The notes under the pieces are model-generated. The model did not search any database, was not told where the DNA came from, and saw only the letters and a list, made by a program, of their open reading frames with translations. A stretch of 64,000 nucleotides of DNA from Tubiluchus corallicola (Eukaryota > Animalia > Priapulida): the NCBI GenBank assembly GCA_030141605.1, contig JAQGDQ010000009.1, positions 1,054,001 through 1,118,000 on the forward strand. The letters run 5' to 3'. Positions within the stretch are counted from its first letter, which is position 1; each line of letters opens with the position of its first letter. The position numbers were made by a program, and so were the translations under genes. Shown piece after piece: positions 9,001-64,000 of the stretch.

Positions 9001-12000
9001 AAACGGATGCATCTTGTACGTGTTTTATACATATAAAGAAAACATACTGCTTTTTTACTACAAATAACTAGTTTACTTTTATTTACTGCAAAATATTCCA
9101 CTTGTTACTAAAAAAAACAAAGAAGAACTTTAGAGCACTAAAATTAAAATCAGAAGGCTAAGATGGGTTGGACACTTAATCAGATTGTCAGAAATAGCAA
9201 CAGTAAGATTAGCATTAAATGAGGTAGTGAAACCTACTAAACGACCTCCAGGCAAAATCAAAATCAATTGGGATATCAAGAATTAATGTAGATTTACAAC
9301 AGCTGAGGCCAAACTTAACAATAGTGTCTGAAGAGTTGAAAATCTTAGCTGCAGACTAGAATCGTTGAGGTGTGCTAATAAGGGATGAATGTTTAATCTC
9401 TACAATACATGTTTAGAGCAACAGAAGCAGAAAAAACCCAAAAAACAATTTTTTTTCATTACCTTGCAGAATTTGTATTGTACAATAACATGTATTTATT
9501 GTAAGTTGCCTTCTTCAAAAATATTCTTTGCGGTAAAATTTACAGCTACCTGTCATGTTGTTAAATTTATATAACGAAGCTATGGTTTTTCCTTTTACAG
9601 ATTAATTTGTTGTTGTCATGTTAGTAACAAAATTTTTCCTTGTTCTTTCTTCTCACATGTTATTTTACTATTTTTTTTTTCATGTTTTGTTTGTCATCTA
9701 CAGAAGTGTAAAAGATCTGTTACAAGCCTTTGGTGATGCATACTTAACTGGTTTTTAAATTTTCTTTGTCCTAGTAAAATGTTTTTTGTTTGTAAACATT
9801 TGTACTCTTATTTCAGATTCATCAGAGCCAAATTTGCTAAATATCACTAGTATAAATACAAGAGATGTAGAGTTACATTGGGAAGTGCCTGTAGAAATGA
9901 ATGGGCAAATTGAAACTTACTTAATCACGTACACAGACCATGATGGTACAACTGTAGAGCTAGATTCTGAGAATGCAACAGAGTACACTGTATCTGATTT
10001 AGTCCCATGTCAGGATTACAAATTCACTGTACAGGCTAAAAATGCAGCTGGACTTGGAGCTGTTGCAGATGTCAATGGGACAACAATAGTGGAAGGTTAG
10101 TAAATATTTCATTTTTTAGTTAAAATATCAATTGTAAATCTTCATCTTCTAAGTAATACAGCATCCATTTATTGTGCAAACAATATTGATCCTAAAATGC
10201 ATTTTCTTGTCATTTGAAATGTGAGAATTAACATTTGCTTAACTGAAACAAGCATGAACACATGCGTACTTTTATATTTATGCAACTTAGAGTGAAATTT
10301 GAGTTAATAAATATGACGTACATACTGCTGTTTTAATATTTACAATCCCAGTCTGTTATTTTGAGAAAAGGCATAAGTAAGTGTATAATTTGGCATACTT
10401 TGCCTAAGATCATTGCAAACTTTGAATTTATACATATCATTTGTAATTCTTAATGTCTCTTTGTATCCTGTGTTGAATTAATTGACTAAATTAATTATTT
10501 ATCTTTGTTACAATAGTGACTCTTTAGTAAATTTGGGCAGCAAAAATACAAATCATGACTAAGATAATGCATTTTTTTGCTGTTTTTTTGAGTCTTATTG
10601 CGTTTCCTATCATACAACAGGATTTTTGTCAAATTTATTTACTTTTCTAATCTGCATTCTAATGACTTTGAACAAAATCAGGAAAAAATTGCTAACTAAA
10701 TTTGTTTTTTTGTGATACACTTGCAGTTTAATTAGTTAGTTTAGTTAACAATTGCCAAAAGTAAGTATCATGTTGGTATCTTTGCTTCTGTTAAACTACA
10801 TTGTTATTGTTACTTGTTTTCTCTGAGTGAGAGAATAGGATGATACATTATTTGTTACTTATTACACACTTTGTACTATTCGTTTTTTGTGATACACTTG
10901 CAGTTTAATTAGTTAGTTTAGTTAACAATTGCCAAAAGTAAGTATCATGTTGGTATCTTTGCTTCTGTTAAACTACATTGTTATTGTTACTTGTTTTCTC
11001 TGAGTGAGAGAATAGGATGATACATTATTTGTTACTTATTACACACTTTGTACTATTTGTGTATGTTATTACATACTACACACTTGTGCTTTTGTGAATG
11101 AATGTAGCATGTGTAACGCTACCCAGTTTTCTTTACTAGTTACTGAGTTTGATTTAGTTCTCTAGTTCTTTCAGTTAGTAAAGTCATAGCTTATAAATTA
11201 TGTAGCTCTCATATTCAAGATACGTATCAAGATAAGCTCTTGTATGTCACAGTACACACATGTAAGTAATTAAGTATGTTTAAGTAGCTGCATTCATTAT
11301 TATTATTTATTTTGCAACGATAAAGCTTTACAAATAGTATCTATTACTCTTTATAAGCAAATTATTATACTTTGAAAGTACTTGGTTGAATTTGTATATT
11401 TCTATGAAAAAGCTGTAATTTGTGAGAGCATTGAAGTCATACTGCATTTTCTGCTTCTAAGTGTGAATTCTCTTAAATTCACTAATTCAATTAATAACTG
11501 TTGTTTGCTTGTGTAGAAGCTGGGATCCCGTTGGATGTAAATCCACAGTTATCAGATGATGACAAGTACCACACAGTTATTGTTGATTGGAAGGAGCCCG
11601 CAAATGCAAAGTTTTGTCAAGTTCTGAATTATAGATTAGAAGTTACTCAAACTAGAGAAGGCATTTTATATGAAAGCCAAACCTTTTATAGCACTGAAAC
11701 TTCTCACAGACTGAACGGTAACTTTTTTAAAAAATGTTGTCAACTAATTATCTTGCACTTTTTACTGATTTAATTTACTGATTTAACTTTGTGTTTATAA
11801 TAATATAGTTAAATAAATAATTCTTTATACATATTATTTGTAAAGCTATTGGAACATTCATAATTATATTTAGAAATTGAACTTTTTATCATACTGTTTG
11901 CAGATGTAAAAAAATTAAATTGAAGCTTTGAAAGATTAAAAACAGGTAGTTAAGACGAAATAACCTTTGGTTTTAATGCCATACAAAGTACTATTTCTAA

Positions 12001-15000
12001 CTATAGTTAATAATTCGCATTTATAACATATGACATTTATAACGACCTTTCAACACATTTTCACATATGTATCGTAGGTTAACATAAATTTAAATGGAAT
12101 AGATGTCAAATTAGAGAAGGCAATGGCAAAAATTTCATTTAGCAAACAAGTAAGGTGCTTGTTTATTTAAGTATTCTGAGAAGTAACACCATTAATATGA
12201 TATGTACTGAATTAACATTTATTATAATTAATCCACAAAAAAATTGAAACGTAACAAATTGGGAACTAGAGAAACTTTGAATTATACGCCTTAAATTACT
12301 CATAGCGCTACTTTCTCCAAATCACTTAAACATTTAAAAACTGAAAATTTTTATTTTGCAAAATCTTTTATTAAAAACTTCAAGTGAAATAGTATTGCAG
12401 TGTGATTTCCTTTCATATACATTCACCATTGTAAGTCCATGTAATATAAGAATAAACTTCATATATATCTCAATTTATGAAGCTAGTGAAAGTCTTCCTT
12501 ATATCTCAAGATGGCATAGATAGTCAAAGATTTTTCACTTTTGTACGAAATGTTTAGTACACTGGAAAGCTAATGAGTCTGTTTATTTTTTATCTCATGT
12601 AGCTCTTTGACAAAGTGCTTATATAAATTTTATAGCTAAGCACCTCATAAGCCATGGATAATGTAAAATTACATGTAAAGCTAATCTAATGACAATTATC
12701 ACCATGTTGCTAGATAAATAATATTTTAAAGGAGGTGTCAGTATTTGAACTTGAATACTGCTATGCTATCTGGTTGCTAGAAGATTGTATTAGTAATAAT
12801 GAAATGCTCAATACAAAATGTAAAGAACTTCACATCTTTGCAATTGTTTATATTCCATGTTGCTTTCTTGCTGTAGTATTGAAAATCTTAGAGAGGATTG
12901 GCATGTCAGCAGCTGCCTAAGTTGTAGTTAAATACCTAGGTTCTAAATAAAGGATTTTTACTCAAAACTAAAATATAGAGCTACTTTAGAATAGACTCAT
13001 TATTAGTAATGTTGAAATTTTCGCAAAAACCGAGTATTATAAAATTCACTATACTATGTTTCCTACCATTTATTGTTGCATATTTTTATCAAAGCTTGAC
13101 TAAGTTTTTATGTCATGTTTTTAGTTTCAGCAGAAATGAATGTTTCAGTTAAAATTGCTGCTGAAAATGAAGCAGGGTTTGGTGAATTTTCAGATGAAAT
13201 GTCTATTACATCAGAAGCTGATGGTAGGTATATTATCAGTATTAAGGACTTGTATATAGTTTTACCACTGCGCTTTCTTGTATGTTAGTACTGGTACTTT
13301 GTTGCATTTTGAAAAGAAGTATATAATGTAATTGTTGTATGACGTGTATTAAATACATATTTCCAATCTTAATGTATTGCTCCTGTATTTTTTTGAGTTT
13401 TTAATTTTTATATATTCTTAACATTTAGCTCTTAGATGTATGAACTTTATTCGCTATTTTCACTTGTTTAGTGCCAGATGTTCCTAGAAATCTAGAACTG
13501 CATGAAATCTCATCGTCGTTTACAATGGTATATGAGAACACTGCTTGGCATACTGTTCAAGTCACCTGGGATGAGCCATTAAATAGTGATTGGTTAGGAT
13601 TGACACGAGGTTACAATCTGCAGTGGAAGTATAGTGGTCTTGAAGACTGGAATCCTGTATCTGAAGTCGTGGACACAACTTATAATATAAGTGAGTGTGT
13701 TGTACATAGTTATCTACCTGGAAGACAAATTTTATATTATTAACATTTTTCTGATAAGCCAGTAACAAATGAAATGTTTGGCTAATTAAATATGCTAATT
13801 GGGCAAAATCAGTTATTAAATGGGTAGGGACAATTTCATAAGTACATATGCAAATCTAAAAAACTGCTGAAAAATTCAGATTTGAATGTTGGATTCCAGC
13901 CATGAAGCTGTTAAACAATCAAGGAAAAACATTATTACTTGTACCTGGTGATGATGTTGTCCTCTGCTAAAATCACAATAACAAAATAGTATAGCCTGTA
14001 CAATAATAAACTCAATTTTTGAGATGTTTATGTATTACTAATAATTGCTATGGGAAAGAATTAAACTGGAATGGAAACCAATGAAAGCAAAAAAAAGAGA
14101 CTGTAATAAGTACGCAAAAAGGAAGGAAAGAAAGGAAAATACGGGCATACAAGAACAAATTAAAGATGACAGACAGACAGCATGTGGACCAGAGAAGGAA
14201 GGATAAGACAGAAAAAGATATTAATTTTGGCTCCTTAGACCCATTTACCTCTTAGAGAGAGAGCTGAGAGGGACCTCAATAATGAGCCTTTTTGAGACGA
14301 TGTTGGCATCTCACTGACGACATCTACTAAATCAACCTGTATCAGACTATCAAATTAAATGATAAATATTTTTAAGTAGGACTTCATCCCAATTTTATAC
14401 GATACTGCAAATTTGAGAACAAGTATTTTTCTAAAATCTGTTTCAAATGACTTTATGATCTTTAATACTTATTGTTGTCAGTTTGCAAATCTAAGTTAAT
14501 GCTTTACTCTGACAAGTGTGCTGGTCTAGTGAAATGTAGGTCAGCCCATCATTGTAGAAATTTGGGAATGGGTAGTCAGGTCTTGGGAAAAATATGGTTA
14601 TGCTTTCATTCACACTGTCTGCCACTTTTTTAACCTCCAAAAGTATGTGCCCAATTGAGGTGATATTTGGTGTTGCGATTAGTTAGGATGTCCTTGATTC
14701 AAAGTAAATTATTTGTAACATTTCGTTTATTAGTTAGATTTGTTTGATGAATTATTTTTAAACTGGTTCAATTCCAAAAATGTTTATCTATTTATCCAAT
14801 TGAGTTGAAATTTAGCATTATGATTACTTAGGATGTCCGTGGTTCTAAACAAAAAATTCTAACTCTTTGTTAGTTAATTACTCAGAACTGTTTAATTAAT
14901 TCATATAAATTTATATGAATGCGAATTAATATGCCAATTCCAATGAAGTTTAAATATGCTGCAGAGAACAGAAGATCCACTGTAATGTATAAGACTTAAG

Positions 15001-63680: not shown

Positions 63681-64000
63681 CTGAAATAAGAGTACAAATG
63701 TTTACAAACAAAAAACATTTTACTAGGACAAAGAAAATTTAAAAACCAGTTAAGTATGCATCACCAAAGGCTTGTAACAGATCTTTTACACTTCTGTAGA
63801 TGACAAACAAAACATGAAAAAAAATAGTAAAATAACACGTGAGAAGAAAGAACAAGGAAAAATTTTGTTACTAACATGACAACATCAAATTAATCTGTAA
63901 AAAGTAAAAACCCATAGCTTTACGTTATATATATTTAACAACACGACAGCTACCTGTAAATTTTACCGCAAAGGAGATTTTTGAAGGCAGCTTACAATAA
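53600..64000. repeat. Right arm of the inverted duplication (pairs with about 9496-23000)
   Basis: Exons and introns are reverse complements of the gene A ectodomain region; the arm continues past the window edge. Confidence 0.92.

Follow-up and report, generated by a model that had tools for sequence, protein, structure and literature searches.

Two inverted R3-type receptor phosphatase genes with probably homogenised ectodomains and strongly divergent cytoplasmic halves, a putative enzyme and pseudoenzyme pair

What keeps two neighbouring receptor genes alike outside the membrane while their inner halves drift apart? The question is raised by the window analysed here, a stretch of 64,000 nucleotides (contig JAQGDQ010000009.1 of assembly GCA_030141605.1, positions 1,054,001 to 1,118,000 of the forward strand), in which two genes for R3-type receptor protein tyrosine phosphatases (RPTPs), A and B, lie tail to tail with about 10 kb between them. 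An initial annotation of this DNA took them for paired receptors, with A acting as a decoy, dominant-negative partner or phosphotyrosine-binding scaffold for active B. Our analysis indicates that recurrent gene conversion between the inverted arms has very probably kept the ectodomains alike. That A would damp the active B, by competition for a common extracellular partner or by pairing with it, is a reading to which we give a probability of roughly 0.5; a shared ligand and the decoy or dominant-negative roles of A are hypotheses read from the DNA.

Self-alignment of the window gives one long inverted match (9496-22990 against 64000-53595). The initial annotation let the repeat end at 64000, which is the window edge; the outer limit of the tract, like the N-terminus of each protein, lies beyond it. 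Over exons 7-17 the two proteins are 86% identical (581 codons), with a synonymous divergence (dS) of 0.16 and a nonsynonymous divergence (dN) of 0.069, and identity of single exons ranges from 74 to 97%. Likeness is greatest far from the membrane, where exon 9817-10095 differs from exon 63402-63680 by three residues in 92 complete codons (10/279 nt), intron identity over the full length is 97% for 7/8 and 93% for 8/9, and identical runs reach 310 nt. Going inward, intron identity passes through strata (97, 93, 81, 94/76, 82, 71, 87, 75, 82 and 71%, then none), and the introns nearer the membrane, at 71-87%, can be aligned in part only. The view that ectodomain exons are almost the same and their introns near-identical thus holds for the distal exons and the first two introns, but not toward the membrane, where later introns are 71-94% identical in patches.

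From the transmembrane (TM) exon onward, introns had been said not to align and the proteins to be strongly diverged, and this is what we find. From intron 17/18 on, none of 11 homologous introns aligns, except for one 16-nt match; beyond that point all likeness between A and B comes from a dispersed high-copy repeat in non-homologous introns and from the TM exon itself. The TM and juxtamembrane exons show 39% amino acid identity and a dS of 1.74, and the protein tyrosine phosphatase (PTP) exons 39-40% identity with a proportion of synonymous differences (pS) of 0.76-0.78, which is saturated. Synonymous differences number 57.5 at 399 sites in exons 7-17 and 137 at 177 sites in the PTP exons (Fisher p 8e-49). 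Divergence along the two genes is therefore not uniform but steps up at the TM exon.

Homogenisation within the ectodomain is itself patchy, with introns ranging from 97% down to 71%, which argues for several events; pS is 0.089 in exons 7-10 and 0.188 in exons 11-17 (p 0.004). One event left a visible trace in intron 10/11 of A, where a B-type tract (Table 1) is 95% identical to B in its intron part versus 82% to A's live copy at 16435-17022. The tract ends in a dead, frameshifted copy of exon 11, which begins at 15034, and its simplest reading is that a B-to-A tract was pasted beside the older copy.

Two sequencing runs with the same species label, X5 and X6, are diverged from the window and permit a test of homogenisation later than a lineage split, as used in PMC3210942. 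Both runs, in short contigs of low depth, contain A-type and B-type PTP exons with about 5-12% divergence per piece (in X6, 31/293 nt in four A cytoplasmic exon pieces and 19/283 in two B PTP pieces), so both paralogs predate the split. Of the differences listed (40 of 291), 24 fall in ectodomain exons and 11 in PTP exons of B; the other 5, in repeats or introns, are omitted. At 16 of the 24 listed ectodomain sites the window has A equal to B and the other lineage differs, and at 8 that lineage has A's letter. Because it differs where A and B agree, conversion appears, on these fragments, to have gone on after the split. An exon-8 piece from X6 points the same way, being 13/156 nt from B and hence at least 8 from A, while A and B differ from each other at 5. 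An exon-7 contig of X5 has a depth of 12.2 versus 2.5-8 for single-copy pieces, a hint that two near-identical copies merged and that the X5 copies are homogenised to each other. Among the differences listed, those in the ectodomain that A and B share are 10 nonsynonymous and 5 synonymous, versus 1 and 10 in the B PTP exons (p 0.005): the ectodomain changes fast and the B enzyme is conserved. In exon 11 (58249-58356, minus strand, and 17023-17130, plus strand) the X5 contigs have A's letter at all 4 listed sites, and A and B differ by 19%, above lineage divergence elsewhere; B's exon 11 may come from a third paralog beyond view, or the B copy of X5 may merely be uncovered.

Conversion of this kind need not involve function, and neutral concerted evolution is the main and a serious rival, although on balance we consider it unlikely. 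It holds that close and similar inverted arms simply convert, that the cytoplasmic halves escaped early and now block pairing, and that A and B work independently with their ectodomain likeness tolerated. Introns are homogenised as much as exons (97-98% in the distal runs), identity fades toward the edge where homology ends, a junk copy of an exon was left in A by one of the tracts, and ectodomain changes look nearly neutral, all of which speaks for it; Fossum et al. moreover discuss homogenisation as a possible default that needs no selection on the ectodomain (PMC3210942). It accounts less readily for an edge placed exactly at the TM exon, the border between ectodomain and cytoplasmic half, and for an A frame that is intact and spliced despite saturated synonymous sites, whereas the fast protein change of the ectodomain equally fits the tracking of a ligand.

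Whether A could oppose B depends on its cytoplasmic half, which the initial annotation called degenerate. Of the PTP motifs, that half retains the KNRF loop and DYINA, together with the catalytic Cys and Arg, the Asp that serves as general acid and the first Gln of the Q-loop. Its WPD has become YVD and its QGP reads QSP, the Ala at C+2 is replaced by Ser, and the second Gln of the Q-loop is a Glu. The term therefore suits the YVD, the C+2 Ser and the missing YxN, by which A departs from canonical R3 enzymes, but not the open frame of 28 exons or the catalytic residues kept. The combination of an Ala-to-Ser change at C+2 with an altered WPD loop is that of HD-PTP, which is inactivated by this Ser alone despite its retained Cys (PMC2661844); a review reports that a Trp-to-Tyr change in the WPD loop kept another PTP in a non-catalytic loop position (PMC10536487). 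The PTP domain of A is thus predicted to be weak or dead, and probably is. In the model of the HD-PTP authors the C+2 Ser loses favourable contacts to phosphotyrosine (PMC2661844), so a phosphotyrosine-trapping scaffold is the weakest variant of the proposal, less likely than a competitor or dimer partner.

Several sequence features surround these exons of A. A tandem acceptor (31026-31031, plus strand) precedes the P-loop exon, with scores of 7.6 for the proximal and 4.7 for the distal site; use of the distal one would remove one residue and break the CX5R spacing. A direct duplication of 94% identity (29751-30450 and 31605-32169, plus strand) takes in the acceptor of the WPD exon and the 50 nt that follow it; the copy at 32118 is broken by a 2-nt deletion. 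Profile scanning found no hidden canonical WPD exon in A, and a PTP-looking open reading frame at 31559-31744 was rejected, having no profile or Pfam match.

A is not a pseudogene, since its frame is open and exons 19-20 (23629-23690 to 25134-25206) and 22-23 (26280-26353 to 27939-28022) are joined across introns in contigs of X6, a whole-sample run taken by guess to be RNA (none of the runs listed for these sequences is on record as RNA). The possibility that A is not expressed is thereby countered, and exon-bounded contigs of both A and B occur in this one probable RNA run. In a PTP tree A and B are sisters (93/89, not starred) with branches of 2.26 and 0.41, that of A being about five times longer; the tree is thin, with 14 rows; it omits the P0001 rows and one isoform of B, and Littorina lacked the domain. 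An approximately unbiased test did not reject a grouping of B with a fish PTPRH-like protein to the exclusion of A (p 0.089). The saturated synonymous sites and the long A branch together suggest that the A/B duplication is old.

A could instead be catalytically active but slow, or active on another substrate, much as PTPRQ turned to phosphoinositides; one input would then feed two catalytic outputs, and the pair would not work against itself. The Cys, Arg, Asp and first Q-loop Gln are all in place, and some invertebrates are known to have divergent R3 proteins that read WVD or WTD and lack YxN (PMC5336234). The divergent sea-urchin proteins, however, keep the Trp and the C+2 Ala that A has lost (PMC5336234, supplement), the QGP motif and second Q-loop Gln are altered as well, and the long branch of A speaks against an active domain, which makes this alternative distinctly improbable.

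B fits the description of a canonical enzyme given in the initial annotation, with WPD intact and two C-terminal YxN motifs, and it adds a feature missed there, two alternative exons running from the WPD loop to the catalytic Cys. Use of either exon a or exon b gives an open frame, whereas use of both gives a frameshift. The two are tandem, homologous, intact and equal in length and phase, and we predict that they are mutually exclusive. They agree at 24 of 50 residues, their synonymous sites are saturated (pS 0.85) and their splice scores lie within the range of other exons, for which reasons they look old and kept. Three of the four changes listed for exon b in X6 are silent, and no splice joint of this exon is among the matches listed; exon a is uncovered in X5 and X6, which are uninformative about it. 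No convincing RNA pairing was seen around the two exons (two inverted pairs of 15-18 nt).

Two further explanations concern the origin of the pattern itself. A single recent partial duplication might have set an ectodomain copy on an old, unrelated PTP tail, with no repeated exchange. The sharp boundary at the TM exon would suit such a chimera, but one event predicts uniform divergence while identity varies from 71 to 98% in patches, the PTP domains of A and B are sisters in the thin tree described above, and X5 appears to hold several near-identical ectodomain copies with letters of their own; we consider a chimera very improbable. The other explanation lies in the assembly. In run X1, possibly the source sample and hence not independent, A-specific ectodomain contigs of 988-1907 nt show 0-1 differences at depths of 160-192, compared with 162-187 in the unique PTP region of A, and one contig spans exon 16 through the TM exon to exon 19. 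Stretches shared with B are 238-270 deep and carry B letters at 13 of 14 positions tested, the pattern expected when two close copies merge. X3, from a different sample and study, covers introns and behaves as DNA; it yields an exon 15 of A type that matches exactly, a B-type piece (14601-14916) and a contig (15045-15412) across the tract end at 15118. With A-specific contigs at single-copy depth in X1 and both types of exon plus the tract end in X3, mis-assembly, whether one ectodomain written twice or two haplotypes joined, is hardly credible even allowing for the status of X1 and for two perfect tandem duplications in the A arm (10706-11060 and 18337-18788). These near-perfect duplications, with units of 178 and 223 nt, lie in introns of A and are single or absent in B; they would be either very recent or assembly slips.

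How, then, might A damp B? After an old R3 duplication, repeated gene conversion would have kept the ectodomains alike. In the inverted layout conversion would copy tracts, so that the arms could exchange without deleting a gene, and a crossover between them would, from the geometry, only flip the spacer and swap the cytoplasmic halves, with neither gene broken. Tracts across the TM exon would be selected against or blocked by lost homology, and fast protein change in the ectodomain would be as expected when a changing ligand is tracked. B would signal both through its YxN tail and by dephosphorylation, for which it has two alternative catalytic cores; any signal from A would run through the Tyr motifs peculiar to it (YEDI, YEVP). 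A would damp B by competing for the extracellular partner or by dimerising with it through the GxxxG kept in both TM segments, a pairing proposed because TM-mediated dimerisation suppresses PTPRJ activity (10.1101/672147).

Several observations weigh against A damping B in this way. The membrane-proximal ectodomain exons are only 74-90% identical with a dN/dS between A and B of about 0.43, so binding may already differ, and the FN3 domains nearest the N-terminus, a possible seat of the binding site, lie beyond the window. The TM segment of A has no charged residue. By the CX5R rule A, spliced at the proximal acceptor, is not a pseudophosphatase, keeping as it does Cys, Arg, Asp and Gln. Co-expression at the level of cells lies outside the reach of X6. 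The comparison with the other lineage draws on short, low-depth contigs and 40 of 291 differences, the exon-8 contrast on its own has p 0.087, and exon 11 gives 0 of 4 sites where only the window's A and B agree, all four listed having A's letter. The proposal might also be extended, tentatively and at less than even odds, to a system of three outputs in which one fast-changing ectodomain, maintained by conversion, would serve the two spliced active cores of B and the dead Tyr-motif core of A; A would oppose B on a shared ligand, for example a microbial or self-recognition molecule, and crossovers could swap outputs between two promoters.

Table 1. Coordinates of genes A and B, their homogenised arms and selected exons, in window positions.
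Feature	Position	Strand	Basis or remark
Gene A, R3-type RPTP	66..33007	+	28 coding exons seen, 5' end beyond window
Gene B, canonical R3-type RPTP	63680..43158	-	22 exon positions, 23 exons with both WPD exons; 5' end beyond window
Homogenised arm on the A side, exons 7-17 with their introns	9496..22990	+	patchy blastn match to 53595-64000, 71-98%
Homogenised arm on the B side, continuing past window edge	53595..64000	-	blastn/intron alignment
B-type tract in A intron 10/11, ending in dead exon 11 copy	13955..15118	+	intron part 95% to B
A live exon 11	17023..17130	+	least homogenised ectodomain exon at DNA level: 81% nt, dS 0.70 to B
A TM exon, homogenisation edge	23186..23285	+	dS 1.13, 52% amino acid identity to B; GxxxG kept, helix without charged residue
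B TM exon	52034..52166	-	GxxxG kept
A juxtamembrane exon, Tyr motif YEDI absent from B	23603..23689	+	spliced to next exon in X6
A WPD-to-Cys exon: YVD for WPD, catalytic Cys kept	30396..30547	+	Pfam 19 bits versus 40-42 for the two of B
A P-loop and Q-loop exon: C+2 Ser for Ala, Arg kept, tandem acceptor	31029..31167	+	alignment
A last coding exon: without YxN, one Tyr (YEVP)	32952..33007	+	sequence
B WPD-to-Cys exon a, 152 nt	46245..46396	-	open frame, WPD and VHC kept; none seen in X5/X6
B WPD-to-Cys exon b, 152 nt	45266..45417	-	X6 contig 45273-45418, stopping at acceptor
B last exon: YQNV (across splice), YENV	43158..43276	-	sequence

The assignment of both genes to the R3 type follows from their architecture. 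The frame of A is open over 1352 codons, with GT-AG introns and one GC-AG intron (splice sites read from sequence), and Pfam fn3 and Y_phosphatase matches outline 8 FN3 modules, a long juxtamembrane domain, a TM segment and one divergent PTP domain. B has a 970-codon frame that is open with either WPD exon. A six-frame profile scan found one series of PTP exons per gene, as expected of a single cytoplasmic PTP domain, no second PTP domain in either gene and, in the spacer of 10 kb, neither PTP nor FN3 exons. All four FN3-type exons tested match Pfam fn3. Exons 14-17, which make up the juxtamembrane domain, carry a Cys-x-Gly-Pro-Leu motif as in PTPRQ and PTPRB, and the Pfam PTP_tm match is weak (E 0.012, below cut-off). 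The closest local match of B is a fish PTPRH-like protein (45%), and its exon 23 finds generic PTPs, mostly fish PTPRZ/G (58-69%). The organism has no close relative in the protein collections searched. Exon 15 has no relative among longer proteins, with only two spurious repeat matches among 1.84 billion representatives; exon 16 has a single match, to a PTPRQ-like fragment from Littorina (E 0.32) that is 29-37% identical to A and B and too faint a hit to indicate a phylum, and a single-exon fold prediction reached a predicted local distance difference test score of 50.

Some further features were observed in the window, whose spliced genes and GC content of 32% suggest an invertebrate animal. 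The GC-AG intron occurs at the equivalent place in both genes (21311-21312, plus strand; 54465-54466, minus strand). Both juxtamembrane domains contain an RxKR site (21952-22069, plus strand; 54081-54201, minus strand), which we take to be of the furin type and at which both ectodomains could be cleaved or shed. The upstream FN3 modules of A (66-9015, plus strand) form a repeated pair, exons 1-3 and 4-6, that are 41-57% identical and point to an older internal duplication. One high-copy repeat has copies at 6493-7250, 23926-25066, 28294-29143 and 52365-53076, and its summed depth in X1 exceeds 100,000. What remains of the DNA-binding part of a Tc5-type transposase is encoded by the copy at 24508-24714 (Pfam HTH_Tnp_Tc5, E 1.9e-05).

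Comparison with known systems places each part of the locus. Mutually exclusive exons within enzyme catalytic domains are found in pyruvate kinase M1/M2, JNK and p38, where the exons are likewise tandem, homologous, equal in length and phase and frameshifting when used together; those of B differ in that they encode a PTP segment bounded by the WPD loop and the catalytic Cys. They offer one scaffold on which to ask how this segment sets PTP activity. In the open-access literature searched (subscription journals lie mostly outside it), no mutually exclusive catalytic exons in PTPs and no gene conversion or paired-receptor case among RPTPs are reported.

R3 RPTPs (PTPRB, PTPRJ, PTPRH, PTPRO, PTPRQ) combine FN3 repeats, a long juxtamembrane domain and one PTP domain, and those of invertebrate deuterostomes fall into two types, a canonical one that carries YxN and a divergent one that lacks it and has its WPD altered (PMC5336234). 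The split between B and A matches these two types; homogenised ectodomains between the types are not reported in the available parts of that paper. In our tree, which has no PTPRQ-like sequences of the divergent type, A groups with B, and B is further set apart by its duplicated catalytic exons. HD-PTP/PTPN23, IA-2 and the inactive D2 domains of two-domain RPTPs keep the Cys and have the C+2 Ala replaced (by Ser in HD-PTP, as in A) and the WPD loop altered (PMC2661844). HD-PTP, however, is cytosolic and has WPE, whereas A is a receptor with the Asp kept, beside an active twin, and by this analogy A would supply a D2-like module in trans. If A opposes B, the locus would be a natural experiment on what R3 ectodomains bind and on whether an inactive dimer partner turns a phosphatase down.

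Pairs of leukocyte receptors oppose immunoreceptor tyrosine-based inhibitory motifs (ITIMs) to charged TM residues or adaptors with immunoreceptor tyrosine-based activation motifs. These classical features are absent here, the TM and tail sequences showing no charged TM residue in A and no ITIM in either tail. At the DNA level the likeness is close: the leukocyte pairs are neighbouring paralogs with conversion limited to the ectodomain and continuing after lineage splits, patchy tracts and relaxed constraint on converted exons (PMC3210942, PMC5701461), and the "merohomogenization" pairs (KLRC/NKG2, Ly49, PIR; Siglec-11/16; Siglec-5/14) combine these features with distinct signalling halves. 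A and B likewise show ectodomain-restricted homogenisation and divergent signalling halves, and they resemble Siglec-11/16 (PMC5701461) in their DNA, differing in the charged residue and the ITIM. In the leukocyte pairs a shared ligand and opposite signalling have been shown, whereas A and B are known from sequence alone, and their contrast lies inside the catalytic domain of FN3-type phosphatases in a probable invertebrate. Among the immune lectins and Ig receptors of mammals, gene conversion confined to the ectodomains of opposing partners is on record; if A opposes B, the logic of paired receptors would have been reached independently with an enzyme and a pseudoenzyme.

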